From an uncultured bacterium (lineage in GTDB: Bacteria; Patescibacteriota; Minisyncoccia; Moranbacterales; GWC2-37-73): DNA of 64,000 nt. The notes under the pieces are model-generated. The model searched no databases. It saw only the letters and a list, made by a program, of their open reading frames with translations, and had not been told where the DNA came from. Both the position numbers and the translations under genes were made by a program. The stretch is taken from the NCBI GenBank assembly GCA_903851135.1, contig CAINNK010000037.1, forward strand, positions 1,320 to 65,319. Reading direction: 5' to 3'. How positions within the stretch are numbered: the first letter of the stretch is position 1; each line of letters begins with the position of its first letter. This document shows positions 28,674-63,405 of the stretch, piece after piece.

Positions 28674-28695
28674 CGGATATTGATTGAAAAAAATC

Positions 28696-38619: not shown

Positions 38620-39228
38620 CTACTTGGAATTTCTCAAGGACACTGCCATCTGGATTTTCAAGGGAGATGATGTTTGACTGTCATTTTTAACCGTAACCGC
38701 AACAGCGACAACTCCATATGTTGCTATAGTGGAAGGTACAACGTTAAAAAAAACTTTCGTCACATTTGGAGGAGTAAGGTCATCTGGTGACGTCATGACA
38801 TCAAAATTGCAATTATCAAGCGCATCGCCGTCGGAAGTGTAAACTTGCAGCTTATTTGAAACCAATGAATATTTTATACATTTCAGCTGAGCATAATCGA
38901 AACAGCCAAGATTATTTTCATCTATTTTTCTCACATCACTAGTTCTAATGGTTTTTGCCATAAGATTCATCGCAAACTGAGTTGCTTCGATATTTTGCTG
39001 CATTTTTTTTGACTCGGCATAATTTTTCAAAAAATTCCCAAATATCCCAGACACCATCACTGAAACCAAGGAAAAAAGAAAAACCGCAATTAAAGTTTCC
39101 ACCAAAGTAAAACCTTTCCTGGTTGAAAAAACCAGCTGCTTGCGCTCAGAGGAAAAGCGACACTTCAGCAATTGCCATTCCTTTTTTATATTATTTATTT
39201 TCTTTTTCATTTGCATAAACCAAGCCAA
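38620..39228 (-). CDS. Minor type IV pilin (PilW-like)
   Basis: Class III signal RKG|FTLVETLIAV; the real start may be a downstream ATG. Confidence 0.8.
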   Translation of the reverse strand: MAWFMQMKKKINNIKKEWQLLKCRFSSERKQLVFSTRKGFTLVETLIAVFLFSLVSVMVSGIFGNFLKNYAESKKMQQNIEATQFAMNLMAKTIRTSDVRKIDENNLGCFDYAQLKCIKYSLVSNKLQVYTSDGDALDNCNFDVMTSPDDLTPPNVTKVFFNVVPSTIATYGVVAVAVTVKNDSQTSSPLKIQMAVSLRNSK

Positions 39229-39266
39229 ACTTATATATCTAAAAAGCCAACAAAACCGCTCTCATC

Positions 39267-39821
39267 TTAAGGAACAACCGTATAGGAGATAACTAAACTA
39301 GCAGTTATGCATTTATTTGAAACATTGCAAATTGCCGGAGGATTCAAGTTATCTGGTCCATCCCACCAAACTTCACTGGTAACTATTCGCTTTCCAGAAA
39401 CACTACCGTCTATATCTATTTTCCTGCAAAATTTAGTAGGAGTTCCTCCACCACTGTGAGAATAATATCCGCTAGTTTCATCCAGGTATAATCTAAAATT
39501 CCCAGCATTTGGAAAGGAGATTTCTCCCGTGGCAGCATCCATATCTATCCTGTGATCATTATAATCTGTTTTATCTGTAAGCATCGAATTGTCATTCAAA
39601 TTTCGCACCAATTCAATGCCTTCTTGAGTAAGTTGAGCTGCAATGATTTGATTTCTAGCCATTGCGGATGTTTTGATATTTGCAGTCATAATTGCAACAA
39701 TACTCACGATTCCAATCGACAGCACCAACAATGAAAACAACACCTCAATCAAAGAAAAGCCTTTCTTGGCAACTGTTTTATTTCCATCCTGATTGTATTT
39801 TTTCTTGTTGAGCATATCCAA
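39267..39821 (-). CDS. Minor type IV pilin (PilV-like)
   Basis: KKG|FSLIEVLFSL...AAQLTQEGIELVRN. Confidence 0.82.
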   Translation of the reverse strand: MDMLNKKKYNQDGNKTVAKKGFSLIEVLFSLLVLSIGIVSIVAIMTANIKTSAMARNQIIAAQLTQEGIELVRNLNDNSMLTDKTDYNDHRIDMDAATGEISFPNAGNFRLYLDETSGYYSHSGGGTPTKFCRKIDIDGSVSGKRIVTSEVWWDGPDNLNPPAICNVSNKCITASLVISYTVVP

Positions 39822-39845
39822 AAAAAATTATTTTAAAAAAATCTA

Positions 39846-40400
39846 TCACGAGCACGCCGTCTTTTGCGCAAAAATGTTTCCCATTTTATTAATGCAAACA
39901 TAATAAACATCAGTCCCTGAAGCAAGCTTAATATAACCGTCAGAACTAACATCTCCGCGAGGAGCTGTGAAATAAAATTGCAAACCAGGTGAAGATTCCA
40001 CAAAAGAAACTGTGCCATTATCTTTTTTTGCGCTTAGATACATTTCAACAGCCGCTGAATCAACTTCATTATTCAAAGCGCAGTCCCTGACAGTATTGGT
40101 GTATTTTTTGTCGCCAATATTGAAATTAAATTCAAATTGACACATCATGACGCCATCAATACTTTTGCCATTGATGGAATCATTTTGCAACGCTCTAAGT
40201 TGAGCCACGACCTGCAGCGCAGCAATTTCAACCTCATTAACCCCCTTGTTCTTGTTCATATTAACTGCCACTACCCCAGTCATCAAAGAAATAATCGCAA
40301 TGACTACCAACAGCTCAATCAAAGAAAAACCGTTTCTCATTTTCGATGAAATTCCTGATTTAAATGAGAATTTTCTTTGCTTGTCTTGATTGTTGAGCAT
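39846..40400 (-). CDS. Minor type IV pilin (FimT/FimU-like)
   Basis: RNG|FSLIELLVVIAII; C-terminal VCINKMG. Confidence 0.8.
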   Translation of the reverse strand: MLNNQDKQRKFSFKSGISSKMRNGFSLIELLVVIAIISLMTGVVAVNMNKNKGVNEVEIAALQVVAQLRALQNDSINGKSIDGVMMCQFEFNFNIGDKKYTNTVRDCALNNEVDSAAVEMYLSAKKDNGTVSFVESSPGLQFYFTAPRGDVSSDGYIKLASGTDVYYVCINKMGNIFAQKTACS

Positions 40401-40408
40401 GAGAAAGA

Positions 40409-41209
40409 CTAACTAAAAAGTAAGAAATAAGATTGCAATTGCGGAAACATCCGCGGAAGCAGCAAGACCAAAAAGACGCCAGCAATCAAAAAAGGCGCAA
40501 ATGGCACCTGGCTTTTGATGGTTTTTTTGCTAGCCACAACCAACAAAACACTGACAAAAGCCCCGATTGAAAATGAAAGCAGCAGCGCCACCAAAATATT
40601 TGACCAACCAACAACGAGCCCGGCTAATAATCCAAGATAAGCGTCGCCATAACCCATCCAGGTTTCTTTGGAGTATGCCGCCAAACCGTAAAAGAAACCT
40701 CCAGCGATTAACCCACCCAAAATTCCTGCAATTGTTTTTAATTCCAAAATTGAATTAGCAGTTTTGAAACCATAATAGTCGGAAAATATGTAATACACTA
40801 AACTCACCCCAATACCGAGCCACAAGATCAACATTGGAATTTCCATGTATTTAAAATCATACACAAAAATAACTATCAAAATAGCAAAAACAACCAAATA
40901 ATACGTCGTCAAGCTCCAAGTCAAAGGATCAAGCATGTCAAAAAAATAATTTCCAATCAAAGCAAAGATTACACCAGTTGCAGCTTCCACGAAAGGATAT
41001 TGCCAAGAAATTTTTTCGCCGCAATCGCGACACCTAGCACTGAGCAGAATAAAACTAAGCACCGGTACATTATCGAACCAACGCACAGTTTTTTTGCAAT
41101 GCGGACAATGGCTGCGCTCCAATAAAGACTCCACCGCATTCAGACGATACACTACTGCGTTCAAAAAACTGCCTATGATTAGTCCGAACAAAAGAAAAAT
41201 GATTATCAT
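40409..41209 (-). CDS. pilD: Prepilin peptidase (A24)
   Basis: GSFLNAVVYR, RSHCPHC, ARCRDC, ISWQYP, MGYGD, VPFAPF. Confidence 0.93.
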   Translation of the reverse strand: MIIIFLLFGLIIGSFLNAVVYRLNAVESLLERSHCPHCKKTVRWFDNVPVLSFILLSARCRDCGEKISWQYPFVEAATGVIFALIGNYFFDMLDPLTWSLTTYYLVVFAILIVIFVYDFKYMEIPMLILWLGIGVSLVYYIFSDYYGFKTANSILELKTIAGILGGLIAGGFFYGLAAYSKETWMGYGDAYLGLLAGLVVGWSNILVALLLSFSIGAFVSVLLVVASKKTIKSQVPFAPFLIAGVFLVLLLPRMFPQLQSYFLLFS

Positions 41210-41334
41210 ATTCTTGTTATTATTTTTTAATCCACCTTATCAGTCTTATTTGTCCTAGCATCGTCCTTAACCTATTTCTTCCTCAAAAATTTCATTTGTT
41301 TGCCAATTTTTTTGGCAAACATGGAAACTTTTGA

Positions 41335-41745
41335 TTACGGACAAACAGCAGCTGCTGCTGGAACCGCGCAAAGATTGTCAGAGAACAAGCCTCCTTGTCC
41401 AACGAAAACGTGACAGTTAGTCGCAGTTGTAGTTGGGAAATCTTTAACATTAGTAGCTTCTTCACAGAAAGTCAAACTTCCAGTCGGCCCGCAACTATCA
41501 GTAAAGGCAGCATCATGAGTCCAAGTTATGTTTGATGTATTAGTCAATGCTGGAGTTCCTGCAGTAGCATCACATTTCATAAGGATACCGCCAGCAGAAC
41601 CCCTTGCTTCCTCCAAAAATGCTGCACGATTGGCCTTTCCCCTAGCAGCAGAAGTGCTAACCAAGATAACTCCCGCCAAAATGCCAATGATTGCAATCAC
41701 AATCAAAAGTTCAATCAGCGTGAAACCTTTTTGTGTTTTTTTCAT
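41335..41745 (-). CDS. Type IV pilin (major pilin candidate)
   Basis: Short leader MKKTQKG|FTLIELLIVIAIIGILA; Cys-rich head. Confidence 0.88.
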   Translation of the reverse strand: MKKTQKGFTLIELLIVIAIIGILAGVILVSTSAARGKANRAAFLEEARGSAGGILMKCDATAGTPALTNTSNITWTHDAAFTDSCGPTGSLTFCEEATNVKDFPTTTATNCHVFVGQGGLFSDNLCAVPAAAAVCP

Positions 41746-41887
41746 ATTTATTATCTTTATTTAAAAATTAACATTTGTAATTACATCGACCTTTCTTATG
41801 TAATTTATATCTAAACTTTCCATTTTTTAGCTTTAATTTCAAAATCTAAAACTTTCCCACCAAATCAACAAACATTTTCTATTTAAA

Positions 41888-42352
41888 TTAGTTGCAATCA
41901 TTTGTCGCATAACTGCAGGTGATAGTTATTTGTCCTGTTTTTGCTGCGGTAAAGGTGTAACTTAAAATCTGAGCATTTGTTGCTGCTCCAGCAGTTACGA
42001 TATATCCGGTTTTGGTGTTTATATCCGGCCATTTCACTGTGTGGCTGGCGTCATTACAAATCGTACTGGCCGTATTATAAGCATTGAGACCAAAACCATC
42101 ATCTTGACACGCAACCAATTCCGGCAACACACTCGACATGGTTGTCATAGCGGAAGCTCTTTTTGATTTTTCAACACTCCCAGCGGAACTCACCATAACA
42201 ACTCCCGCCAAAACACCAATGATCGCAATCACAATCAACAATTCAACCAGTGTAAAACCTTTTTGATTTTGCGCAAAAAGAAAATTGGTTGAATTGTTTT
42301 TTTCAGCCGAAATTAAAACTTTTTTGAAAACGGATTTTTTCTCTTTTTCCAT
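41888..42352 (-). CDS. Type IV pilin with long leader
   Basis: QKG|FTLVELLIVIAIIGVLA; probable ATG at 42352; four Cys in the head. Confidence 0.85.
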   Translation of the reverse strand: MEKEKKSVFKKVLISAEKNNSTNFLFAQNQKGFTLVELLIVIAIIGVLAGVVMVSSAGSVEKSKRASAMTTMSSVLPELVACQDDGFGLNAYNTASTICNDASHTVKWPDINTKTGYIVTAGAATNAQILSYTFTAAKTGQITITCSYATNDCN

Positions 42353-42416
42353 AATATGATTGTAGCACAATAGTTATCGTTTTTAAATACCTTGACAATT
42401 ACTAAATTTGAATTTT

Positions 42417-43625
42417 CTACATCAGTGTTGAAAGATTGTAAATCGGAATCAAAATTGCAAAAACCAAGATTGCCACCCCAAGCCCCAACAAGGAAATCAG
42501 AATCGGCTCCAGCATGGTTGAAAGATTGCGCGTAATGGTGTCAGTCTCCTTACCATAAAATACGGCAATGTGTTTTAGCACCTCACTTATTTTTCCAGAA
42601 TCTTCTCCGATTTTGATCATCTGCGGTACAATCGGCGGAAAATATTGTGAACGCGCAAAAACGCTACTCATCGTTCCACCTTTTTTCACTTCATCAGCCG
42701 CTCGCAAAATAACACTTTCATAAGCTGTGCTGTTCACGACACCGCTAATAATCGTAAGCGCTCTAACTATTGGAATTCCTCCAGCTAGCAACACTGCCAA
42801 ATTCTCCGAAAAACGAGCCAAATAAACGTATTTGAAAATATTTCCAACCACCGGAATTTTCATTTTGATAATATCCCATTCTCTTTTTCCATCCTCACTG
42901 CGGATGTAGTAAACAGTTCCACTGATAATTGCAGCCAAAAAAACCAAAACTATCCACCAATATTGACTCATAAAATCACCAACATTCATCATGACTTTCG
43001 TGTACCACGGAACTTCAGCATTTAAATCTTTGAAAATAGCTGTTAGTTTTGGCAGCACCAAAGTAGAAACCACAAATCCAATTATCGTAGCCGCTGATAA
43101 AACAAACCCTGGATAGAAAAGCGCACCCCTGATTTTTGAAGTGAGATCATAATTTTTTTCCGCATTTTCAGCCAAGAAAGAAAAGGAACGTTCCAAATTT
43201 CCCGAAAGTTCACCAGCTTTAATCATACTGATCGCCAACGGCTCAAAAATATCCGTGTGTTTAGCCATCGATTCGGAAAAAGGCATACCATCCTCCAGGT
43301 CATTAACCATTTCCCAAATGATTGTTCGCAAATAAGTGTTTTCAGTTTGATCAGCTACCGCTCGCATGGAATAAATAATTGCAACCTTAGCTTCAATCAA
43401 AGTTGACATTTGCCTGAAAAAAACCGCCACTTCCCGCAGGCTGATTCCTTCCCAAAGATGTTGGAAATCTTTAATGAACTCAGGAACTTGTCTTTCCTGC
43501 TCAATTGAAATAGGCACCAGGCCTTTACTTTGCAGTATGGCGGCGGCGGCATCTTTTGTGATAGCCTCAATGTGCCCCTCCCTCAAGTCTCCGAGAGCAC
43601 TTTTAGCTTGAAAAGAAAATTTCAT
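42417..43625 (-). CDS. pilC: Type IV pilus platform protein (T2SS F family)
   Basis: FFRQMSTLI, MIKAGELSGNL, ALFYP, MIKIGEDSG, LEPILI. Confidence 0.93.
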   Translation of the reverse strand: MKFSFQAKSALGDLREGHIEAITKDAAAAILQSKGLVPISIEQERQVPEFIKDFQHLWEGISLREVAVFFRQMSTLIEAKVAIIYSMRAVADQTENTYLRTIIWEMVNDLEDGMPFSESMAKHTDIFEPLAISMIKAGELSGNLERSFSFLAENAEKNYDLTSKIRGALFYPGFVLSAATIIGFVVSTLVLPKLTAIFKDLNAEVPWYTKVMMNVGDFMSQYWWIVLVFLAAIISGTVYYIRSEDGKREWDIIKMKIPVVGNIFKYVYLARFSENLAVLLAGGIPIVRALTIISGVVNSTAYESVILRAADEVKKGGTMSSVFARSQYFPPIVPQMIKIGEDSGKISEVLKHIAVFYGKETDTITRNLSTMLEPILISLLGLGVAILVFAILIPIYNLSTLM

Positions 43626-43702
43626 AGTAATAAATTAATTAAATTATTTTTATTTCACTGTTCGAACTTTTTTGAAAAAATATCATTCTTAATAATCAAA
43701 AC

Positions 43703-44785
43703 CTATCCATTCCTTCCAACAAGCATCTGCAGATATTCGCGATTGCTAGAATAGAGCAAGGCATCGTCTACTGTTATCAAACCGCGCTGAACCAAGTCAG
43801 CCAAAGATTTATCCAAAGAAATCATCCCATCACGCAGACTGGTTTCAATGACTGAATCAATCTGATAAGTTTTATTTTCTCTAATCAAATTCTCAACCGC
43901 ATGATTATTAATCATGATTTCTAAGGCCGGAACACGCCCACCACCGACTTTCGGCAACAATCGCTGGGAAACAACACCCAAAAGCACGCTGGCCAGTTGC
44001 GATCTGATTTGATTTTGTTGATGCGCTGGAAAAACGTCAATGATACGATCAATTGTTTGTGAGGTGTCATTTGTATGCAAGGTTGCCAAGATAAGATGTC
44101 CGGTTTCAGCAGCTGTCATCGCAGTGCTAATTGTGTCCAAATCTCGCAGTTCACCAATAAGCACAACATTGGCATCTTCTCGAAAAACACTTCGCAGCCC
44201 ATCCTGAAAAGATTTTGTATCCTTACCTACTTCTCGTTGATTGATGATGCAACGGTCCTGCTCATAAACATATTCTATCGGATCTTCAATTGTCATGATG
44301 TGCTTATCTTGATTATGATTGATAAAATCAATAAGCGCCGAAAGAGTGGTTGACTTACCGTGCCCAACTGGACCAGTAATCAGTAATAATCCTTGAGTCT
44401 TGTGAGTAAATTCATACAGTGCCGGCGGGAGCCCTAATTCTTCCAAAGTTCTGATGCGACCAGAAACCAAACGCATCGCCACACTTACGTTACCTTTTTG
44501 ATAGAAAACATTAGTACGAAATCTGGCCTTTTCTTCAAAGTTATAGGAAAAATCAACTTGACCCTCAGCGATCAATCTTTTTTTGTTTTCTTCCGTCATC
44601 AAACTATCGCTCAGCATCTGCGTATCTTCCACTGACAAAATACTCTCTTGAGTGAGAGGATAAAGCTGTCCATCCAAGCGAATAGTCGGATATCGCCCCA
44701 CAACCAAATGAAGGTCTGAGGCATTTTGTTGAGCAACCAGACGCAAAAGATTTTTTACTCTTTGTTCACCATGCAATGTTGTCAT
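43703..44785 (-). CDS. pilT: Type IV pilus retraction ATPase
   Basis: ASDLHL, RFRTNVF, GPVGHGKSTT, TIEDPIEY, GELRD, AAETGHL, TLHT, RIIDVFP, QIRSQLA. Confidence 0.93.
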   Translation of the reverse strand: MTTLHGEQRVKNLLRLVAQQNASDLHLVVGRYPTIRLDGQLYPLTQESILSVEDTQMLSDSLMTEENKKRLIAEGQVDFSYNFEEKARFRTNVFYQKGNVSVAMRLVSGRIRTLEELGLPPALYEFTHKTQGLLLITGPVGHGKSTTLSALIDFINHNQDKHIMTIEDPIEYVYEQDRCIINQREVGKDTKSFQDGLRSVFREDANVVLIGELRDLDTISTAMTAAETGHLILATLHTNDTSQTIDRIIDVFPAHQQNQIRSQLASVLLGVVSQRLLPKVGGGRVPALEIMINNHAVENLIRENKTYQIDSVIETSLRDGMISLDKSLADLVQRGLITVDDALLYSSNREYLQMLVGRNG

Positions 44786-44905
44786 TTTTTATTTTTATAT
44801 TAATTTGATTTTAATTAGATGAACTAAGCTATCAAACAACACCAAAAAAATCCCCAGAAAAATCACGCAAGCTACCAACATAGTTAACTTTATTGTACTA
44901 AAAAT

Positions 44906-45280
44906 TTACATTTTCAGCAAAGTTCTTACTTTATGTACCACCTCTGAAGGTGTGAAATGAGATTTAATCAAATAATCATTGGCTCCGGTTTCCATCCCTT
45001 CGTCGATTTTTTCTTTTTCAGAAATGTTAGTCAACATGATAATTGGAATTTCCTTCAGTTTTCCATTCTCTTTTATTTTTCTCAAAACTTCCATGCCATC
45101 CATGTATGGCATAATAACGTCTAGCAAAATAATATCAGGAACGAATTGATTCAATCTTTCAAGGGCAACAACCCCATCTTCAGCCATCATGACTTCAAAT
45201 CCTTCTTGTTGAAATTTTATTTGATAAATATCGCGAATAAAAGTGTCATCCTCTATAATTAAGATTTTCTTTTTATCCAT
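44906..45280 (-). CDS. Single-domain response regulator (receiver)
   Basis: ILIIEDD, PDIILLDVIMP, DG, IPIIMLTN, YLIK. Confidence 0.92.
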   Translation of the reverse strand: MDKKKILIIEDDTFIRDIYQIKFQQEGFEVMMAEDGVVALERLNQFVPDIILLDVIMPYMDGMEVLRKIKENGKLKEIPIIMLTNISEKEKIDEGMETGANDYLIKSHFTPSEVVHKVRTLLKM

Positions 45281-45313
45281 AATTGTTGAGCCGTTATGAT
45301 TAAAAAATTAGAC

Positions 45314-47026
45314 TTAAGCTTCATCGACGTCTCCACCGACACTTCTGCTGCCCTCCGTTACTCGCTCCACCTCAGCAAGCGTAGTCCTGCCAGCAAGTGC
45401 CTTTAGTACCCCGTCTTGTTTAATTGTAATCATCCCTTGAGTTTTTGCATAATCTTGAACAGCTTGCTCACTGCCGTCATGTTCAGAAATAATTTCTTTA
45501 ATGTTAGCATCTACTTCAAGAGCTTCAAACATTGCAATACGTCCTTTGTAACCAGTTTTTCCACACTCTTCACAACCAGCTCCTTCAAATAATGAGACTC
45601 CTTTCTTCAGATCAACCCCATATTTAGCCATATCTTCGTCTGATATCCCTTCAATTTGGCCAAGGAGATACTCCTTTGTTGATCCAGAAATGCTGACCTC
45701 ATGCTTACATTTATCGCAGATTCTTCTGACCAAACGCTGCGCAGCCACAACTCGCAAAGAAGACGCCAACAGGAAAGCTTCTACACCCATGTCAACAAGT
45801 CGAGGGATTGCTCCAATGGAGCTATTGGTATGCAAAGTTGAAAGCACTAAGTGACCAGTGAGGGCAGCATGAATTGTAAGCTCAGCAGTTTCACTATCGC
45901 GAATTTCTCCCACCATAATAACATTCGGATCTTGACGCAAAATTGAACGCAGTCCACTAGCAAAGGTATAGCCAATTTCAGGATTTATTTGACTCTGATT
46001 GATGCCAGCGATGGAATATTCAACCGGGTCCTCAAGTGTGATGATGTTTCGCTCTTCCATATTCAAAACTTCCAAGCAAGAATACAAAGTGGTTGATTTT
46101 CCACTACCAGTAGGACCAGTCATCAAAATAATTCCGAAAGGTTCACTGATATTTCTGACCAAAATATCTCCGCCTCGGCCTATGATTCCCATGTTTTCGA
46201 GACTATCCAGCTTATTGTCCTTATCCAAAAGTCGTAAAACTATTTTCTCTCCATCCATAATAGGCAAAGTTGAAACTCGAAAATCAACCGGGTGTCCATT
46301 TTCAACAACATTAAAACGACCGTCTTGCGGTTTCCTTTTTTCATCTATTTTCAAATTGGCGAGAATCTTAATTCTTGAAACTACCGCCTTTCCAACTTCT
46401 TTAGGAACAGATAATGAAGCATAAAGCAAACCATCGACACGAAAACGCACCCGATATTCTTTATCGATTGGTTCAATGTGGATGTCACTAGCTTTACCAT
46501 CAATCGCGTGACGAATAATCACACTTAAAAGTTTCGTAACTGGAGCCGACTGAACATTGCTGTCACCTCTGCCACCATCGCCCATTGCAAAACTGCCTTC
46601 CTCTTCTCCGACAGTTGCATCGTCTCGCAAAGAGTCTGCGGCTTCTTCAATCGCCTTTTCAGCTCCACCGGAATATTGCACAACCAAATCTTGAAAAACT
46701 TTCAAAGAAATCAAATAAACCTCAAACTGCAATTGAGTTTTTTCAGAAATAAATCGCAAGACATTCAGCGCATTGATGTTTTGCGGATCAACAATGCCGA
46801 CCTTAGCAATATTTTCTTTTTTCTCGAAAACAACCATCTGATTTCCCCTGGCAACATCTTCCGGAATAATATTAAGCACGTCAATAAAAACCGGAACGCT
46901 CTTATTCATATAAGGCATACCTAATTTCCTGGCCTCTTCGGCGAGAGCCTCGCCATCACTGACAGAAACAATTCCCTGGCCTTTTATTTCTGTGGCTATT
47001 TTATCATCATCAACTAAATTTTCCAT
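45314..47026 (-). CDS. pilB: Type IV pilus assembly ATPase (PilB/GspE)
   Basis: ASDIHIEP, RFRVDG, PQDGR, GPTGSGKSTT, LRQDPNVIMVGEIRD, CDKC/CEEC, GYKGR. Confidence 0.93.
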   Translation of the reverse strand: MENLVDDDKIATEIKGQGIVSVSDGEALAEEARKLGMPYMNKSVPVFIDVLNIIPEDVARGNQMVVFEKKENIAKVGIVDPQNINALNVLRFISEKTQLQFEVYLISLKVFQDLVVQYSGGAEKAIEEAADSLRDDATVGEEEGSFAMGDGGRGDSNVQSAPVTKLLSVIIRHAIDGKASDIHIEPIDKEYRVRFRVDGLLYASLSVPKEVGKAVVSRIKILANLKIDEKRKPQDGRFNVVENGHPVDFRVSTLPIMDGEKIVLRLLDKDNKLDSLENMGIIGRGGDILVRNISEPFGIILMTGPTGSGKSTTLYSCLEVLNMEERNIITLEDPVEYSIAGINQSQINPEIGYTFASGLRSILRQDPNVIMVGEIRDSETAELTIHAALTGHLVLSTLHTNSSIGAIPRLVDMGVEAFLLASSLRVVAAQRLVRRICDKCKHEVSISGSTKEYLLGQIEGISDEDMAKYGVDLKKGVSLFEGAGCEECGKTGYKGRIAMFEALEVDANIKEIISEHDGSEQAVQDYAKTQGMITIKQDGVLKALAGRTTLAEVERVTEGSRSVGGDVDEA

Positions 47027-47100
47027 GAGAATAAATAAATATATTTAAAAACAAATAAACAAGCCTAACTAGCTAACAAAAAATCCCAATAACATAATAA

Positions 47101-47874
47101 TTACTGACTCAAGAATGGGTTATTACTTCCGGCAGAGATGCCACTCATATTGATTTTTGGAACATTTCCAGCGGTATAATCTTTCAATTTTTGAATTGTC
47201 GCATTATCAATCTCAGGATGAAAATCAGCCAGCTTCTTGTCATCAGCTTTAACTTGCTTTAGGTATCCAAAATCAACAGTAATTTTAGCCGTGATTGTGG
47301 TGGTTGACTGCGAGCCTGTAGTTGAAGTTGCAGCTGAATCACTACTGGTCGTCTTTTCAACAGTAGCTATATTTAAAGATTTTATTGAATTGAAAAGTGG
47401 AATGTGCTGAATGCCATTAAAAAAGGTTTTCAATTTATCATAATCACCATCAACCGTAATCACAGCCTGAGTATTCTGAATGATATCGATAGGTTGATTT
47501 TTCGAGGCTAAATCAGCCACAACGGAAGCAGGAGTTGGGTTATCAACAATTTCAACATTATCCAAAAAGACCCCGGCATTAGCCGCTAAATAATTAACTT
47601 CTCCCACAATTTTCTCCTCCACTTTATTCTTAGGGAGGTAGTTCAAAATCATCGCGTTACTCTCTTCATCATTTTTAATCGTATTACTCAATGAATCAAG
47701 GGCGGCTTTTTTATTCTTAACTCCCTGCAAGATCTGAAGATTGGTATTATAGTCATCACTCACCGCCTTAAAAGCAACGATTTCAGGATTTATATAGCCA
47801 AAAAAAACAGCCACTGCGAGAATTAAAATTATAGGAAAAAACAAATATTTCAACCTCATTTTTTTATTTTCCAA
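47101..47874 (-). CDS. PilO-like pilus assembly protein
   Basis: N-terminal TM, coiled coil, GDYDKLKTFF and C-terminal NNPF; sits after pilM/pilN. Confidence 0.7.
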   Translation of the reverse strand: MENKKMRLKYLFFPIILILAVAVFFGYINPEIVAFKAVSDDYNTNLQILQGVKNKKAALDSLSNTIKNDEESNAMILNYLPKNKVEEKIVGEVNYLAANAGVFLDNVEIVDNPTPASVVADLASKNQPIDIIQNTQAVITVDGDYDKLKTFFNGIQHIPLFNSIKSLNIATVEKTTSSDSAATSTTGSQSTTTITAKITVDFGYLKQVKADDKKLADFHPEIDNATIQKLKDYTAGNVPKINMSGISAGSNNPFLSQ

Positions 47875-48011
47875 TATTTTGTTAAATCAAACAAAAATAA
47901 TGGGTTTATTTATTTAAAATTTTATTATTCAACTAAGTAAATGAGTTATTTTTTTCAGCTTGTAAAAAATCCCCAAACCTCCACAGCCAACAAAAGTCAA
48001 TTAGCTAAAAA

Positions 48012-48533
48012 TCATTTAATATTAATTTCAACATCACATTTTATGCCTTTTGTATCCCTGCTCAAGCTCTTCACATTAACACTTGAAGCAAAATCAGCCT
48101 GTTTAAAGTTGAAAACTTGTTTTGAGACACTGTCAAAATTTGATGTTCTTAAAGTTATCAAAACCTTCTTGTCCGTTTGAGTATATGAAGAAAAGACAAT
48201 TCCCGGGATGACAACTTTGGATATATCACTAAGCACGCTATTGACTTCAATTTTTGCCCCTAAATTATTTTTCACTTCCTTCAGTCTTGTCTGCGTATCA
48301 ATAACGTCGTCCACACTTTGTTTACCACTAAGAGCCCCACTTTCTGAGGTTATTTGAATTTTCAATTCATTATTCTTTTTATCAATAGAGAGCGACCCAA
48401 ATTTTAAACCCAAGAAAGAAATGAGGATTATTGCGAAAACTGCAATAAAAACTATAATACTGAAGTTCATTTTTCCAGTACCGTTAAGCATTTCTTCTCG
48501 CTGTTGATCTTGATAAAGATTGATTGTGGTCAT
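48012..48533 (-). CDS. PilN-like pilus assembly protein
   Basis: N-terminal INL motif, TM and coiled coil; follows pilM. Confidence 0.7.
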   Translation of the reverse strand: MTTINLYQDQQREEMLNGTGKMNFSIIVFIAVFAIILISFLGLKFGSLSIDKKNNELKIQITSESGALSGKQSVDDVIDTQTRLKEVKNNLGAKIEVNSVLSDISKVVIPGIVFSSYTQTDKKVLITLRTSNFDSVSKQVFNFKQADFASSVNVKSLSRDTKGIKCDVEINIK

Positions 48534-48703
48534 GCTTGTGAATAAATCTCGGATCGACGCTAATTTATCTTCAGTAATCTCTAACTATCAAACTCGTGCT
48601 TTGCAACTGTCAGCAAATGAGCTTGGGTAGCATTAGTGATTCATGTTTTCCGTGATAATTAGTGAAAAGATTCGTGTAGATTAGTGATTTATATTCTTAA
48701 TTT

Positions 48704-49831
48704 TTATTTTCTTTTATAATCATCGATGCCGCGTAAAGCCAAACCAAGCGCTACTGAAAATGAAGATCCCAGCTCTTTCGTGAAAGGCGCAACTTCATTG
48801 CTAACAACTATACCACGCCAAGGATTTCCCATCCGCACTTTTTCACCCAAGGACCTAGTAAAATATTCTTCAATACCCTTCATCTTGGAAGTGCCACCGG
48901 AAATTATCAGTGAATCTATCCTAGCTTCTCTATTTTTTTCTTTATAAGCAGCAATGATCCTGCGCAATTCGCCCACAATCAAATCTAAGACTGGAATTAT
49001 GATAGCCGTCTCATTACTATTAAGCATGTCCTTATCACCCTTTTTGAATATTTCCGCTCTGGCTCTAGCAATATTCATGCCATCGGCAATAGCTGAAGTG
49101 ATTTCATCGCCCCCAGCATCGATATTTCTGTTAACCTGAATCACACTTTTTTCAACCAAAACGATGTTAGTTGCTCTGGATCCAATATCCACAATCAAGA
49201 AGGTTCCACCATCATCGCCAACCAGCGATCTGGCAATAGAAAAAGTTTCCAGTTCAATAGCGCTCACATCCAGACCAGCGCCGGAAACCAAGCGGTCACA
49301 ATGTTCAATATCTTTTTTTGGAGCAGCCACTAAAAGCACCTTTATCTTCCCATTAGTTCTGCCCTTTGGATCATTCTTTGCTTTAAGTTTAGCAACAAAA
49401 TTATCTTGATCTTGAAGTTTTACGCCATCCGTTTTCCTTTCAATGATTTCCCAACTCATAGCAATTTCATCAAGAGCACTAGGAATATATTTATGCGCTT
49501 CAAACTGAATCGCTTTTGCCAATTCATCATCCGGCATGTCTGGTAAATCAATAATAGTAACCAAACCGCTAAAGCCTGGGATAGAAACATAAGTTGACAC
49601 AGGCTTTATGCCCATTCTGGCAATAAGTTTTTTCAGGGATTCATTAAGCGCTTGTTCCAGCGAAGCTGATTTCAAACCGTTGTTATTGCTAGCCAAATTC
49701 AAGTCAACAAAACCATAATTTTCCAAACGAGTTTGTTGATCAGTATATGAAAGTTCCACAACTTTAATTGAGGATGTTCCGAAATCGACACCAATAAAAT
49801 GATTCTTATTTGTTTTAAACAATTCAAGCAT
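48704..49831 (-). CDS. pilM: Type IV pilus assembly protein PilM
   Basis: IGVDFGTSSIKVVEL, EAHKYIP, VLLVAA, VDIGSRATN, ISGGTS, VALGLALR. Confidence 0.92.
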   Translation of the reverse strand: MLELFKTNKNHFIGVDFGTSSIKVVELSYTDQQTRLENYGFVDLNLASNNNGLKSASLEQALNESLKKLIARMGIKPVSTYVSIPGFSGLVTIIDLPDMPDDELAKAIQFEAHKYIPSALDEIAMSWEIIERKTDGVKLQDQDNFVAKLKAKNDPKGRTNGKIKVLLVAAPKKDIEHCDRLVSGAGLDVSAIELETFSIARSLVGDDGGTFLIVDIGSRATNIVLVEKSVIQVNRNIDAGGDEITSAIADGMNIARARAEIFKKGDKDMLNSNETAIIIPVLDLIVGELRRIIAAYKEKNREARIDSLIISGGTSKMKGIEEYFTRSLGEKVRMGNPWRGIVVSNEVAPFTKELGSSFSVALGLALRGIDDYKRK

Positions 49832-58586: not shown

Positions 58587-59258
58587 TTAAAGAGTTTCAT
58601 ACACCAATTCCTCATTCCCGCTGAAACTCTTGATCACGTCAATCACTTTTCCGAAAACCTGAAAATCTTTTTTCATAATGATCGGACGATATTGCGGGTC
58701 GCGAGACATTGGTTGCAAAACCACGGCGTTGGGAGAAAAATTGATTTGTTTTATCAGCGCCATGCCATCAACCACTGCCACCACTTTGTCTTTGTTGACA
58801 ACCTCAAGGGTTTTTTCCGTGATCACCAAATCCCCCGTTCCAATCCCGGCATCAGACATTGAATCACCAACCGCCCTGAAAACAAAAACCTGCTCAGGAT
58901 TTTTGCCGTGAATAAAATCTCGATCGAGGGTGACAAATTCAGCAAAAGATTGCTCGGCAAAAACTTGCATGTTATCACAACCAGCACTGCTGAGCACTGG
59001 CAAAATCACGGTTTGAGTCATCACATCATTATGAGTTGCCAAACGAATGCCGCGATTTTGGTGACGAGAGCGAATGATGAGATTTTTCTTTTCCAGACTT
59101 TCCAAGTATTGCGTCACAGTTCGCAATGACGAAACTCCCATAAACTTTGCCAGCTCCAAAATCGTGGGAGAAGACCCATCTTTTTCAAGGCAATCACAAA
59201 TATATTCAAAAATCTTTTTTTGTTTTTGAGTAAGTTTTTTTGTTTTTTCTTTTAGCAT
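58587..59258 (-). CDS. lexA: LexA repressor
   Basis: wHTH LTQKQKKIFEYI...SPTILELA...LESLEKKNLI...RGI; Ala-Gly in SSAGC; catalytic GDSM and ALIK. Probable ATG at 59258. Confidence 0.88.
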   Translation of the reverse strand: MLKEKTKKLTQKQKKIFEYICDCLEKDGSSPTILELAKFMGVSSLRTVTQYLESLEKKNLIIRSRHQNRGIRLATHNDVMTQTVILPVLSSAGCDNMQVFAEQSFAEFVTLDRDFIHGKNPEQVFVFRAVGDSMSDAGIGTGDLVITEKTLEVVNKDKVVAVVDGMALIKQINFSPNAVVLQPMSRDPQYRPIIMKKDFQVFGKVIDVIKSFSGNEELVYETL

Positions 59259-59264
59259 TCTGAC

Positions 59265-59320
59265 ATTATACAACTTTTGGATTTGTGTAACAATAGTACA
59301 CTTGTGCACACAATATACAC
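59265..59320 (-). promoter_or_regulatory. lexA promoter with two candidate LexA operators
   Basis: TTGTTA-N17-TATAAT on the minus strand; GTGTA-N7-TACAC (59285-59301) and GTGCA-N7-TACAC (59304-59320). Confidence 0.65.
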
Positions 59321-59564
59321 AACTGTGCAGAACCCTGTGCATAATCTTAAAATGGCTTTTCTTAGCCAGATAAGCTGCTTATATTTCGCGCTTCCGTGCA
59401 ACACAAATGTGCAGCATCTTTACGTTGTGCATAACTTTCAATACACAACACACACAAATTTAAATTTGATTTGCAACTAGTTTATGATTTAAAAACATTT
59501 TAAAGGCTTCTATTGATATTTTTATCAATATCTGTTAATCTAAATCTTGTAAATAAGTGTACAC

Positions 59565-59646
59565 GGAGAAGTGACTGAGAGGGTTGAATGTAAGCGGGCA
59601 AACATTCAACGGGTTTCAAAAGAAACCCTGGCGGCCCGAAGTCCAC
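59565..59646 (+). ncRNA. tRNA-5'-end-duplicating structured element A (before tRNA-Ser GCT)
   Basis: Exact 18-nt copy of tRNA nt 1-18, then a 9-bp hairpin, a GGGTTTC-AAAA-GAAACCC hairpin and a closing CCCGAAGTC. RNA status is inferred from structure only. Confidence 0.5.
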
Positions 59647-59677
59647 AGTTTTTTGAATTTACGAAGTAAATAGATAT

Positions 59678-59767
59678 GGAGAAGTGACTGAGAGGCCGAA
59701 AGTACCTCACTGCTAACGAGGCAGGGCTTAATCGCCCTCGAGGGTTCGAATCCCTCCTTCTCCTCCA
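59678..59767 (+). tRNA. tRNA-Ser (GCT)
   Basis: GGAGAAG/CTTCTCC-T-CCA; anticodon loop CT-GCT-AA; long variable arm AGGGC-TTAATC-GCCCT; T-loop TTCGAAT. Confidence 0.92.
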
Positions 59768-59828
59768 AAAAACAAGGTCTCTATCTCAAGACCATTTGGT
59801 TTTTTGTGTTTTTAAAAAAAATAATTAA

Positions 59829-59908
59829 GAAAGCATGGCCGAGTGGGTATGGTGCGAATGTGTGAGCATTATGCGGATTTCAAAAGAAACCCAGGAACCC
59901 GAGGTCAT
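59829..59908 (+). ncRNA. tRNA-5'-end-duplicating structured element B (before tRNA-Ser TGA)
   Basis: 17/18-nt copy of tRNA nt 1-18, the same two hairpins as element A, and a closing CCCGAGGTCAT. Confidence 0.5.
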
Positions 59909-59940
59909 TCAAATTTTTGCATTTTTGAAAAAAATATTAA

Positions 59941-60025
59941 GGAAGCATGGCCGAGTGGTTGAAGGCAACAGTCTTGAAAACTGTCATGGGGAGACCCATC
60001 GTGAGTTCGAATCTCACTGCTTCCT
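59941..60025 (+). tRNA. tRNA-Ser (TGA)
   Basis: GGAAGCA/TGCTTCC-T; ACAGT-CTTGAAA-ACTGT; variable arm ATGGG-GAGA-CCCAT; GTGAG-TTCGAAT-CTCAC. Confidence 0.95.
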
Positions 60026-60044
60026 CATTAACATAAAAGCAAAA

Positions 60045-60143
60045 GAGATTCAAAGGGCGCAAGTAGAATGCAAGAAGTACAAGCATTCTGCGTGTAGGGC
60101 CCAAACTGCGAGTCAGAGCAAGTAGGAATCTCACCACTTCCTC
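60045..60143 (+). repeat. tRNA-3'-end-duplicating structured element C (after tRNA-Ser TGA)
   Basis: Terminal stem GAGATTC...GAATCTC; ends GAATCTCACCACTTCCTC versus tRNA GAATCTCACTGCTTCCTC; inner GTAGAATGC/GCATTCTGC hairpin. Confidence 0.55.
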
Positions 60144-60254
60144 CTTGTAAGACAGTAGCTAACACCCTATGGTGTTTTTTTATTTGTCTAAAAAATTTTG
60201 AGCAACTGAGGGTCTGTGTTAAAATCAACTTAAACAAGAGTAACAAAAAAACAT

Positions 60255-60845
60255 ATGCCAGTTGACCTACGACAATTTATCAACAAACCAAAGCAAAAAG
60301 AAAGACGAATTCCGCAATATTCGCAACCAGAGCCTCCAGAAAAGAAATCACCGAAAGAAAATGAAGAAAGCGAAGGAAAATATGGCGAAATCCTGCACCA
60401 ATGGCAGGCGCCCGAGTTTGAGGTTTATGAAAAATCTGACCGCTGGTACCTTTTTGCCGGCGTTTTCCTTTTGGCGATCATCATCTATGCGATGTTTACA
60501 AACGGACCAATTATGGCAATCACCTTCATCTTGGTCGGAATCGTCGGCTACATCCATATGCAAAAAGAGCCGCGCATTGTAACATTCACCATCACCACCG
60601 AAGGAATCATAGCTGACAAGGATATGTATCTATATGAAAATATTCATTCCTTTTGGATTTTTTATGAACCGCATCACACTGAAATTATCAGCCTGCACAC
60701 CAAAGCCTCCATGCTTCCATACGTTCATATTCCCTTGCAAGATGAAGACCCGGTGCATATTCGTGAAATAATATTGCCATACATTCCCGAAATCAAACAA
60801 GAGCAAAGCCTGGTCGACACAGTTGAGAAGGTTTTGCATATCTAG
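60255..60845 (+). CDS. Hypothetical membrane protein (2 TM plus PH-like domain)
   Basis: WQAPEF...RWY, two TM helices, then FTITTEGI...IHSFWIFYEP. Confidence 0.8.
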   Translation: MPVDLRQFINKPKQKERRIPQYSQPEPPEKKSPKENEESEGKYGEILHQWQAPEFEVYEKSDRWYLFAGVFLLAIIIYAMFTNGPIMAITFILVGIVGYIHMQKEPRIVTFTITTEGIIADKDMYLYENIHSFWIFYEPHHTEIISLHTKASMLPYVHIPLQDEDPVHIREIILPYIPEIKQEQSLVDTVEKVLHI

Positions 60846-60985
60846 AATAATTGGTAACTAGTAATCAGAAATCTAGTCTTTCTCAGCTACAACAAATAGA
60901 ACGTTTATACAATTAGAACGTTGCCAAGGCTTTACATTTTCCACCTATCATATATACTAAGTTTTGAGTTGAAAAATAGAAAAAT

Positions 60986-61058
60986 GTCCTTGTAGCTCAG
61001 TGGATAGAGCGTCTGGTTGCGGTCCAGAAGGTCGCAGGTTCGATTCCTGCCAAGGACA
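60986..61058 (+). tRNA. tRNA-Arg (GCG)
   Basis: GTCCTTG/CAAGGAC-A; D-loop AGTGGATA (A20); TCTGG-TTGCGGT-CCAGA; GCAGG-TTCGATT-CCTGC. Promoter TTTACA-N16-TATACT at 60931-60958. Confidence 0.93.
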
Positions 61059-61073
61059 CACTTTGTGTGTTTT

Positions 61074-61213
61074 TTGGCAGGAATCAAACAGGAAAGGGGT
61101 CCCGCCCAAGGCGGACAGGCGGGAAAAACTAGGTTTTCCCGTGGCGGAAGCATTAAAACCACTGGGTTTCAAAAAGCATAGCGCATGAGATCTTCCTGCC
61201 AAGGACACACTTT
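61074..61213 (+). repeat. tRNA-3'-end-duplicating structured element D (after tRNA-Arg)
   Basis: 21-bp direct repeat TTCCTGCCAAGGACACACTTT (61044-61064 and 61193-61213); starts with TTGGCAGGAATCAAAC, antisense to the T arm. Confidence 0.65.
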
Positions 61214-61250
61214 AAAAAAAAACACCACCGATTTTCGGTGGTGTTTTTTG
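61214..61250 (+). terminator. Intrinsic terminator
   Basis: AAAACACCACCGA-ttt-TCGGTGGTGTTTTTT. Confidence 0.8.
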
Positions 61251-61272
61251 TTTTAACTTGTATAATTAACAT

Positions 61273-63405
61273 ATGGACATCTTTAATGCCAAAATCGGGT
61301 CAATTCCGAGAATCAGCGAAAAATACGTTGAAATTTTGAAAAAAATCAACGTTTTCACAGTGAGTGATTTTTTGCTTCACTTCCCTTTTCGCTATGAAGA
61401 TTATAGCGAACGAATTGAAATTGACTCCCTTGTCGCTGGGCAAACTGCCACGATTATGGGCGAGATTTCAACGAGCAAATTAGTTCGAACCTGGAAGAAA
61501 AAAATGCTCATTACAGAATGCCACATTGCAGATGAAACTGGCAGCGTGCGAGCGGTGTGGTTCAATCAGCCCTATGTCAGCGATTCGCTCACAGTCGGCA
61601 AAGGCGTGCGCCTGGCTGGCAAAGTTCTGGAAGACAAAAATGGCTTTTATTTTTCCAATCCGGCCTGGGAACTTTCTTCCCGCGAGCCGACCAACACTGG
61701 AAGATTGGTGCCAATTTACAGCGAAACTGAGGGCCTAACTTCCAAGTGGATTCGCTGGCAAATGCAAAACATTTTCAAATTAAAATTGGAAATTCCGGAT
61801 CCGATTCCGGCAGATATTCTCGAGGAACTCCACTTGCCGCCAATCAAAACTGCCTTACAGTATATTCACTTTCCCCAAAGCGAGAATCAATATTTGCTGG
61901 CTCAAAAAAGATTTGCTTTCCAAAATATGTTGACCGTCCAATTGGCCTCTTTGAAAGTCAAAGCCAATTGGGAAAAAGAATCCTGCGTCAAAATCCCTTT
62001 TCAAGAAAAAACGATCCAGCAGTTCACCGCTTCCCTGCCCTTCACCCTGACCAACGCCCAACGTAAAGCGTCTTTCGAAATTCTCAAAGATTTGGAAAAA
62101 ACCAGACCCATGAACAGGCTGCTTAATGGTGACGTTGGCTCTGGCAAAACTATCATCGCAGCCCTGGCAAGTTTGCAGACAACCCAAGCTGACTTTCAAA
62201 TAGCTATCATGGCCCCCACTGAAGTTCTGGCACGGCAACACTACACAACCTTTTGTGAATTATTCAAAAATACCAAAATAAAGATAGCATTGCTGACAAA
62301 TTCATACAGAGAAACTAACTCAAAGCAAAATACAAGATACGAAATACAAGATACAAAAAAAGTTCAAAAATCAAAAGCCCAAAGAGATGAATTATTAACC
62401 AAAATAAAGCATGGAGAAATAAATATCACAATAGGCACGCACGCCTTGATTCAAAAAGACATTCATTTTAAGAATTTAGCCCTGGTTATCATCGACGAAC
62501 AACATCGCTTTGGCGTCAGCCAGCGCGCTTTTTTGCAACAGCAAATTGAAACTATCAATGATGGACTGCCTGGTAAAATCCCTCATTTACTCACGATGAC
62601 CGCCACCCCAATTCCTCGCACTTTGACGATGGCATATTTTGGCAATCTCGATTTGTCTTTGTTGGATGAGATGCCAAAAAATCGCAAACCGATTATCACT
62701 AAAATAGTTCCACCTCGCCAAAGGAATGAAGTTTATAATTTTGTCAGAAGCCAAGTGGCCGACGGTCATCAGGTTTTTATCATCTTTCCCTTGGTTGAAG
62801 AGTCAGAAAAATTGGCTGAACTTAAGGCGGCCACCCAAGAACATGAAAGACTTTCACGCGATATCTTTCCCGCGCTTTCCCTGGGGCTGCTGCACGGCAA
62901 ACTCAAAGCCAAAGAAAAAGAGCAAGTGATGGCAGATTTCAAAAATAAAAAATATGACATCCTGGTTGCCACTTCCGTGGTGGAAGTTGGCATCGATGTT
63001 CCCAATGCCACCGTCATCATCATTGAAGATGCCGATCGTTTCGGACTTTCGCAGCTCCATCAATTTCGCGGACGCGTCGGCCGCAGCCAGCTACAATCAT
63101 ACTGCTTTCTGCTAACTTCTTCCAACACCGTTAAATCAAAATCACGGCTGGGCGCTTTGGAAAAAACCAACGGTGGTTTTGAAATCGCCGAAGCTGATTT
63201 GAAAATGCGAGGTCCAGGTGAATTTCTGGGCCTGCGCCAATCCGGCTTGCCAGACATTGCCATGCAGCATCTCGGCAACGTGAAACTCATTGAAATTTCT
63301 CGCCAAAAAGCGCTCCAGCTTTTGAAAAGCAGTCCAACCTTGGCAAAATATCCTTTGCTCAAAAAAGAGCTGACAAGGTTTGCCATCAACGTGCACCTTG
63401 AATAA
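61273..63405 (+). CDS. recG: ATP-dependent DNA helicase RecG
   Basis: HFPFRYED, OB wedge (WFNQPY), PMNRLLNGDVGSGKT, APTEVLARQH, IIDEQHRFGV, MTATPIPRT, RFGLSQLHQFRGRVGR, DLKMRGPGE. Confidence 0.97.
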   Translation: MDIFNAKIGSIPRISEKYVEILKKINVFTVSDFLLHFPFRYEDYSERIEIDSLVAGQTATIMGEISTSKLVRTWKKKMLITECHIADETGSVRAVWFNQPYVSDSLTVGKGVRLAGKVLEDKNGFYFSNPAWELSSREPTNTGRLVPIYSETEGLTSKWIRWQMQNIFKLKLEIPDPIPADILEELHLPPIKTALQYIHFPQSENQYLLAQKRFAFQNMLTVQLASLKVKANWEKESCVKIPFQEKTIQQFTASLPFTLTNAQRKASFEILKDLEKTRPMNRLLNGDVGSGKTIIAALASLQTTQADFQIAIMAPTEVLARQHYTTFCELFKNTKIKIALLTNSYRETNSKQNTRYEIQDTKKVQKSKAQRDELLTKIKHGEINITIGTHALIQKDIHFKNLALVIIDEQHRFGVSQRAFLQQQIETINDGLPGKIPHLLTMTATPIPRTLTMAYFGNLDLSLLDEMPKNRKPIITKIVPPRQRNEVYNFVRSQVADGHQVFIIFPLVEESEKLAELKAATQEHERLSRDIFPALSLGLLHGKLKAKEKEQVMADFKNKKYDILVATSVVEVGIDVPNATVIIIEDADRFGLSQLHQFRGRVGRSQLQSYCFLLTSSNTVKSKSRLGALEKTNGGFEIAEADLKMRGPGEFLGLRQSGLPDIAMQHLGNVKLIEISRQKALQLLKSSPTLAKYPLLKKELTRFAINVHLE

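Follow-up and report, generated by a model that had tools for sequence, protein, structure and literature searches.

Short repeats that copy the end of a neighboring tRNA gene, known as TLRs, were reportedly first described in Escherichia coli in 1978. In that species, 22 of them are known, their function was unknown as of 2021, and the three in rRNA operons (rrA, rrB, and rrF) give rise to processed transcripts that CsrA and Hfq bind (PMC8144298, in the portion available to us). Here, we describe four short elements beside three tRNA genes in a 64,000-nt stretch of DNA (hereafter "the window"; contig CAINNK010000037.1, positions 1,320 to 65,319) from the 1.28 Mb genome of an uncultured Patescibacteriota bacterium of the Candidate Phyla Radiation (CPR), and we compare them with TLRs and other tRNA- or hairpin-associated systems. 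Elements 1 and 2 lie upstream of their tRNA and begin with a copy of its 5′ end (D class), and elements 3 and 4 lie downstream and end with a copy of its 3′ end (T class). To our knowledge, the mirror-image upstream class and the guide logic described below are new, and the downstream elements are TLR-like in layout, a kind already known.

The T class resembles the TLR family (RtT, RF00391), whose units of ~100–180 bp carry an 18–19 bp copy of the upstream tRNA 3′ end and form tandem arrays (PMC8144298, same portion). Elements 3 and 4 both carry such a copy, a feature that does not apply to elements 1 and 2. In E. coli K-12, the repeats at tyrT/tyrV, serX, and lysQ have the T layout (trailer, arm antisense to the T-arm, core, copy) and cores that end in a GAGCGAAGCGA-type motif; serW has no repeat, though it has the same tRNA and a near-identical terminator as serX. 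The serX unit, often annotated as RtT, is present in 3536 of 5426 E. coli genomes, at 1–11 places in each. At the level of sequence, a search of five CPR genomes with RF00391 gave just two matches up to E = 1, of 18.6 and 16.5 bits, each on a T element behind tRNA-Ser(GGA). No CPR element reached the gathering score (45 bits), the best of the source genome being 18.6 bits, on a downstream element other than 3 and 4, and RtT gave no match in the window at E ≤ 10. The Rfam comparison proposed in a first-pass annotation of this DNA likewise returned nothing but tRNA above gathering score in 59300–61400. The T class thus works like a TLR and may be remotely related to the family, the only two CPR matches to RF00391 being T elements, even as both stay below the cut-off and the class fails the sequence test. 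The CPR elements differ from TLRs in that core similarity is limited to a 15–27 nt motif (2 of 30 cores beat all 100 shuffles) and in that the upstream mirror class has no counterpart at the four K-12 loci examined (tyrT/tyrV, serX, the lysT cluster, and serW); the antisense arm goes unmentioned in the available part of the TLR description (PMC8144298). We found no published description of the guide or the upstream class in mainly open literature, outside of which are the original TLR papers of 1978 and 1999, which may bear on novelty.

Among mobile elements, the nearest chemistry is that of IS608 (IS200/IS605), which, like REP/TnpA-REP systems, combines single-stranded hairpin substrates with target choice by pairing to an internal guide (PMC5934647, as far as accessible). 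The guide of IS608 is 4 nt long and the element encodes TnpA, whereas the elements here have a 10–20 nt guide across the break and a 16–60 bp duplication. IS608 is not known to make a target duplication, and in this respect our elements depart from the IS200/IS605 pattern. Nor did we find a cognate Y1 gene flanked by the same hairpins, as would be expected of non-autonomous IS200/IS605 or REP elements; the two Y1-like genes of the source genome are flanked by palindromes unlike the element hairpins. Integrase islands also regenerate the tRNA and displace a fragment of it, and both upstream insertion at D-loop sites, in Klebsiella, and downstream insertion are described (bioRxiv 2020.11.02.365908, accessible portion); the elements here differ in having no integrase or cargo, a size of ~100–180 bp, and a target-specific antisense guide. 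Ssn GIY-YIG nucleases cut single-stranded DNA hairpins in NTS/SRM repeats, and the main text, in the part available to us, presents SRMs as short hairpins, with no tRNA, guide, or duplication (PMC11893778). Small GIY-YIG genes are common beside the tRNAs studied here, but the cores are not repeats flanking an Ssn gene: among the genome-wide matches to 11 cores, 20 of 21 are within 600 bp of a tRNA, the remaining one being a weak coding match. We could not connect any GIY-YIG gene with the cores.

Guide pairing across the break

The D elements open with a copy of the tRNA start that has GG at its end, after which come hairpins A and B, the guide, a T-run, sometimes hairpin C, the leader, and the tRNA itself; in the T elements, the order is tRNA, trailer (often with a terminator-like hairpin), guide, core, and tRNA-end copy. 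In layout, the upstream class is the mirror image of the downstream class. Hairpin A is common to both, with identical loop variants, and several mutually unrelated core families have the same arrangement.

The first-pass annotation had described the far end of each element as an arm complementary to the element's own tRNA copy. This arm is indeed custom-made for each target, but it is complementary chiefly to the real tRNA across the break and not just to the copy; by its pairing, it is a guide, beyond a closing stem. It pairs with 2–4 tRNA bases beyond the break that are absent from the copy. With the register anchored on the copied side alone, the guides of 45 distinct D elements (L070 omitted, L127 target assigned manually) offer a Watson-Crick partner to target position +1 in 40 cases and to +2 in 43, compared to means of 26.2 and 24.6 and maxima of 36 and 35 in 10,000 shuffles, which overstate the significance since the sequences are related. 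Position +3 is paired in 17 of 45 (shuffled mean 10.5, maximum 17). On the downstream side, T arms placed by positions 57–65 also pair with positions 56, 55, and 54 in 29/30, 30/30, and 30/30 cases (190 tRNA loci). Because T-loop bases 54–56 are nearly universal, variants at position 55 make the informative test: among 40 elements from 240 loci, C at this position faces G in the arm in 5/5 and T faces A in 35/35. In the orthologous Arg elements L010 and L014, which have the same spacer, tRNA position 55 and the arm have changed in step, and the T arm agrees with the tRNA at all six copy-versus-tRNA differences (two at the junction edge).

Guides are not always plain antisense copies. Many D guides have GA instead of TC opposite target GA, with target-specific bases on either side. 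A TC to GA change opposite T-loop G57-A58 is common to the E. coli tyr and serX arms and a CPR arm from genome G080 (records L173, L204, and L260), and it would make a tandem G·A pair only with the real tRNA. The guide of one Ser(GGA) lineage no longer fits the upstream copy, having changed along with a degenerate target downstream; in these records (L217, L218, L241, L245, L248, and L089), the AT-rich target with which the guide appears to have co-evolved keeps just tRNA nt 21–29. T arms also tend to lie in a fold-back register with the trailer hairpin. Of 42 arms, one of them from E. coli lysQ, 28 are no more than 2 nt away from symmetry about this hairpin, compared to a mean of 15.8 and a maximum of 26 after permutation; 33 are within 4 nt, and the 9 outliers are Arg(GCG) elements of a single core family with an extra hairpin.

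The self-contained fold proposed earlier, a closed state, is just one of two alternatives. Folded as RNA with the tRNA, elements 1, 3, and 4 are predicted to favor the guide on the true tRNA segment, with the outer copy completing the acceptor stem, and element 2 to favor the self-closed state, with the two states 0.1–10 kcal/mol apart. Using DNA parameters, elements 1 and 4 would slightly favor the guide on the tRNA, while elements 2 and 3 would rather close on themselves; none of the differences exceeds ~3 kcal/mol.

Breakage at the tRNA elbow, as first suggested, is no general rule: upstream-type breaks follow GG, and downstream copies start anywhere from position 55 to 59. The D breaks come after the D-loop GG in all four Ser isoacceptors and Cys and after G9-G10 (10/11) in two Leu genes, where the guide is refitted. 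In one lineage, a D-type break falls at 60/61 on the antisense strand of tRNA-Arg(TCG), again with a refitted guide; records L078 and L080 each show a complete D-type element at ~480–560 on the minus strand, antisense to the 3′ end of this tRNA. T copies start at positions 55, 56, 57, 58, and 59 in 3, 4, 10, 7, and 6 cases, and they run 0–45 nt beyond position 73, in one case including the whole terminator. In all, the duplications span 16 to ~60 bp.

Distribution and alleles

Comparable elements, which the first-pass annotation had asked for at other tRNAs, are found beside about one-third of the tRNA genes of the source genome (G000). It has three D elements, and an antisense T-arm stands behind 13 of its 44 tRNAs (one doubtful). 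The own flanks of 12/44 tRNAs contain a self-copy scoring at least 15, a tally that takes in a few nuclease-cassette remnants of a different kind, compared to 8/1892 non-cognate tRNA/flank pairs, so the self-copies are not due to chance. Records that have a core in common with the source genome are mostly labeled Moraniibacteriota or Parcubacteria. A D-class model matches 21/121 genomes of the order (12/16 others in the source genome's own family) and 5/150 of the phylum. The T-loop-plus-inverted-arm pattern is present in 68 of 201 phylum genomes, a count that takes in one unpublished genome (G452) without a match, on which no claim depends; 20 genomes with at least 4 matches are referred to as element-rich. 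Since a reversed control pattern matched 19 genomes (hand count), never more than twice each, single matches among the 68 positive genomes may be chance.

The compensatory changes seen at first in the window hairpins extend to the family. Across 48 aligned D elements, 97.4% of cells pair, with two-sided changes in 12 of 16 pairs, a result matched by 0/500 shuffles, although kinship among the sequences inflates these figures; hairpin B hardly varies. We located all three 9-bp hairpins in the sequence, as well as the duplicated flanks ATTAA and CACTTT, but the 10–11 nt loop was misread: the family consensus is a tandem G·A internal loop, one pair, and a small loop. The internal loop of hairpin A has decayed to AA in elements 1 and 3.

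The view that these are non-autonomous, tRNA-targeting miniature elements gains support from their presence at many tRNAs and in relatives, the covariation, the empty-site alleles that we found among relatives, and a Pfam scan that, as anticipated, recognized no integrase or transposase among the 38 window open reading frames (ORFs). No repeats enclosing an integrase gene or cargo turned up, either in the window or in the 28 largest ORF clusters near tRNA loci. An orthologous locus may be empty or hold a single or a tandem element. We compared six genomes of one genus: G000, G005, and G006 have the Ser(TGA) 5′ element, whereas its 3′ counterpart is found in G000, G003, and G006. At Arg(GCG), G000 has one core family, G003 and G005 have a different one, and G002 has no core. 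Ten tRNA types host core family A, with nearest-neighbor identities of 0.86–0.95 among six cores compared, values raised by the collection of many members with a 20-nt pattern. Because loci are empty, single, or tandem and one core is found at ten tRNA types, the elements behave as mobile cassettes. Tandem and nested arrangements are common, and the core at L025 is chimeric. A terminator at 60161–60176 follows the element 3 copy. G005, whose allele is empty, has this terminator immediately after the tRNA, so it is likely the downstream "copy" that represents the original tRNA end.

Some arrangements stand apart. At L011 (1286–1367) and L013 (2049–2149), a downstream-type core of family C is located directly 5′ of tRNA-Arg(GCG) nt 1, with no duplication seen; at L013, a short arm complementary to nt 1–6 stands before this core. 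We claim no cross-phylum transfer from record L031, which belongs to a 1.0-Mb genome and whose Bdellovibrionales label is unverified.

Elements and genes of the window

In the window region, ARAGORN identified tRNA-Ser(GCT) (59678–59767), tRNA-Ser(TGA) (59941–60026), and tRNA-Arg(GCG) (60986–61059), all intact and, like the element parts below, on the plus strand. Direct repeats with the reported copy-to-tRNA spacings of 113, 112, 117, and 149 bp were found at all four elements, and the 5′ copies of elements 1 and 2 correspond to nt 1–18 of Ser(GCT) and Ser(TGA), as described at the outset. The element 1 copy (59565–59582) has GG at its end and is followed by a core (59583–59628) of hairpin A (59583–59610, of the tandem-GA type, now AA) and hairpin B (59611–59628). 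The guide (59632–59646) is antisense to tRNA nt 7–21, and its first 3 nt pair with nt 19–21, which are absent from the copy; a T-run, hairpin C (59658–59670, with a C-GAA-G triloop), and the leader complete the element (59647–59677). A diverged leader copy stands 5′ of the tRNA copy of element 2 (59829–59846), which has a single mismatch (G2 to A). The core with hairpins A and B (59847–59892) is followed by the guide (59896–59908, antisense to nt 7–20), T-run, hairpin C (59922–59934), and leader, ending at 59940.

Element 3, of core family A, starts with a guide antisense to T-arm nt 54–63 (60045–60054, one base decayed), continues with a core (60055–60125) that includes hairpin A (60063–60091), and ends by repeating tRNA-Ser(TGA) from nt 57 onward (60126–60143; 16/18 nt identical, 2 mismatches). 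Element 4, of core family C, has a guide antisense to nt 53–68 (61074–61089, one base decayed), a core (61090–61192), and a 3′-end copy that starts at nt 59 of tRNA-Arg and takes in some flank (61193–61213; 16/16 nt identical), with a terminator downstream (61217–61249). Its core is split by a small palindromic repeat at 61102–61119, whose 13-nt hairpin has 8 exact copies in the genome. Because element 3 shows several CG to CA changes against its relatives, and elements 1 and 4 show similar ones, these three window copies are likely ageing.

Assembly artifacts, raised earlier as a concern, do not account for the elements: contigs from other runs reproduce all four with 0 differences (X2, 59400–59977 and 59956–61054; X6, 59639–59977; X3, 61021–61400), and relatives share them. 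Of the neighboring genes, a LexA-like repressor gene (58587–59342) is divergent from the tRNA-Ser pair, and recG (61273–63405) is 3′ of tRNA-Arg. Farther off are a free-standing LAGLIDADG_3 gene between tRNA-Met and tRNA-Asp (28684–29373), three giant ORFs of 3065, 2051, and 2268 amino acids with RCC1/FN3, FG-GAP, and endosialidase-chaperone domains (1569–24211), and, downstream of these, a type IV pilus cluster (38620–49831).

Candidate enzymes and competing explanations

The source genome has eight GIY-YIG matches over cut-off, two weak Y1 matches, and one tyrosine and one serine recombinase. Profiling of PF01797 and PF01541 across genomes singled out no partner enzyme, and the only mobile-type genes that recur near tRNA loci are small GIY-YIG, HNH-like, and LAGLIDADG-like genes (the last two labeled by eye). 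Small GIY-YIG genes of G000 are found at C12:63185–63590, C15:14400–14727, and C23:12948–13288 (Ser-GGA, Cys, and Glu-TTC) and another at L002. These nuclease cassettes lie between a palindrome-interrupted tRNA 5′ fragment and the intact tRNA, with different break points and without a guide. The third D element of G000 (C12:63028–63117) is just 5′ of such a cassette, so that one kind of element is nested with the other. Elsewhere, five GIY-YIG genes not associated with tRNAs have flanks unlike these cores; off-tRNA genes at C35:13049 and C8:10946 are flanked by palindromes that we take to resemble Ssn-type repeats. By eye, the GIY-YIG gene at C20:6477 is directly 5′ of an apparent RNase P RNA gene. 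L006, L013, and L019 share a trailer behind tRNA-Ser whose reverse strand resembles a possible leftover of the C-terminus of a CPR serine recombinase, in overlap with the tRNA 3′ end. A phage origin was considered and rejected: viral contigs scanned twice for motifs had 2 and 5 matches, which were chance coding matches without exception. Element 1 had no blastn match in phage records, and the E. coli tyrT unit matched one bacterial contig there.

Hints of action at the DNA level include the antisense insertion at tRNA-Arg(TCG), the many downstream elements behind a terminator-like hairpin, and the triloops: C-GAA-G is the commonest leader-hairpin loop (9/21 stems of at least 4 bp; 45 spacers), and C-GNA-G triloops occur in hairpin C and in E. 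coli cores. Mini-hairpins of the C-GAA-G type are far more stable as DNA than as RNA (PMC13037366, accessible part). What points to RNA is that the elements almost always lie in the sense orientation and would be co-transcribed with the tRNA, and that the Ser(GGA) lineage conserves its pseudo-target helix.

Altogether, we favor the explanation that these are protein-less cassettes inserted by guide-aligned single-strand transfer, which a trans-acting enzyme would carry out, and we judge its chances of being right and wrong to be about equal. The guide of the folded element would pair with an exposed tRNA gene strand, at a replication fork or in incoming transforming DNA, using the 2–4 nt beyond the break as a toehold. 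The target would then be cut at the break and one end joined to the core, and the other side would be filled in by synthesis or supplied by a copy that a unit-length circle brings along. This would regenerate the tRNA and leave a duplication with one fixed and one variable end. Slippage between the duplicates could produce tandem arrays and clean losses, and recombination could swap cores between sites. The downstream class and E. coli TLRs would represent one polarity of this design and the upstream class the mirror polarity.

Several observations weigh against guide-aligned transfer. No mobilizing enzyme was identified near the elements or by genome profiling, and a reverse transcriptase had no match in the source genome. 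Y1/HUH transposase genes are present in 6/20 element-rich and 83/181 other genomes (hand counts); GIY-YIG matches are present in 200/201 genomes, with one weak match alone in one element-rich genome; and among 404 ORFs near tRNA loci, visual inspection of the 28 largest clusters recognized no recombinase, reverse transcriptase, or HUH gene. Neither unit circles nor clean empty-site joints were found in 8 contig sets. Go-back or skip joints of 112–149 bp from the source strain were also absent from these sets, in which contigs drop rare forms, and one 137-nt skip joint came from a relative. Orientation is nearly always that of the tRNA (0/101 downstream-core matches are antisense), and antisense insertion is confined to one lineage. 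D copies are the same as the tRNA over nt 7–18 in 43/53 cases, and among those that diverge the guide is a better match to the tRNA in 6 and to the copy in 3, with one tie. The Ser(GGA) guide helix with a non-tRNA pseudo-target looks like selection on structure without mobility, and some E. coli TLRs are processed RNAs (PMC8144298, in part).

These last points suit a host RNA switch, in which the co-transcribed element would adjust how the tRNA matures or transcription terminates, or else yield a decoy or other small structured RNA. The guide would either close on its own copy, freeing the native tRNA, or invade the D- or T-arm, giving an "expanded" tRNA with the core in a loop. Unconstrained RNA folding, in which elements 1, 3, and 4 are predicted to be invaded and element 2 closed, is consistent with such a switch, as are the location of element 1, which has a promoter-like site on one side, the tRNA on the other, and a T-run 3′ of its guide, the tracking of tRNA changes by the guide in orthologous copies, the helix retained with a non-tRNA partner in the Ser(GGA) lineage, and the processed, CsrA- and Hfq-binding RNAs rrA, rrB, and rrF (PMC8144298, same part). 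However, the elements are patchy among close relatives, cores differ at the same tRNA, one lineage has the antisense insertion at tRNA-Arg(TCG), the triloops are of DNA type, and three of the four window copies (elements 1, 3, and 4) are visibly decayed, so we regard a switch as possible but unlikely. Doubts are stronger still for a selfish repeat propagated by host polymerases only, through template switching. A nicked or stalled 3′ end would fold back at a hairpin and copy its own strand into a guide, then switch through T- or D-arm sequence to the core of another element and back again, leaving the duplication. Such a route would fit the fold-back register of T arms, duplications that extend 0–45 nt past position 73 and once include the whole terminator, custom guides even at rare T-loop variants, the chimeric core at L025, and the failure to find a dedicated enzyme. 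It sits poorly with the many upstream guides that deviate from a plain reverse complement (GA for TC), with a hairpin-to-guide stretch that is mostly non-complementary (positions 71–73 are paired in 6–12 of 48), and with the near-invariance of hairpin B, as expected of a protein site.

A miniature intron-like ribozyme, whose guide would align two "exons" like an internal guide sequence and which would move by reverse splicing, might explain why a single guide bridges the break and why joining the outer pieces would make a normal tRNA. We consider it very improbable: Rfam offers no ribozyme or intron family at E ≤ 10 in 59300–61400, the upstream core is just ~50 nt, unrelated core families have the same layout, and the genome has no reverse transcriptase match. 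Hammerhead, hairpin-ribozyme, and k-turn readings, made by eye, were rejected, as the motifs are not kept across copies. The elements could also be decayed att scars of integrase islands or of small nuclease cassettes at the same tRNA genes. Duplicated tRNA ends do mark islands, including upstream insertion at Klebsiella D-loop sites (bioRxiv 2020.11.02.365908, in part), and GIY-YIG cassettes precede three tRNAs of the source genome. Scars are already unlikely because of the covariation, with compensatory changes in 12/16 pairs of conserved cores that hold no gene remnant; moreover, guides are refitted per target, fixed sizes recur, and the nuclease cassettes break elsewhere and have no guide, leaving this explanation with hardly any weight.

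More broadly, we tentatively propose, while thinking it somewhat more apt to be wrong than right, that TLRs and the CPR cassettes form one widespread, unrecognized class of protein-less mobile DNA, with a programmable 10–20 nt splint guide, two mirror polarities, a host single-strand enzyme, and a guide-defined bond. The CPR copies supply the natural variation with which to read the TLR design, namely the break-spanning guide, its covariation with the target, and the 5′ mirror form. The long-standing TLR question, retargeting versus tRNA processing, becomes directly testable in E. coli K-12. If the elements are mobile, they would be a natural, guide-programmed system for single-strand insertion that itself includes no gene; if they act as RNA, they would be a new kind of tRNA-maturation switch.

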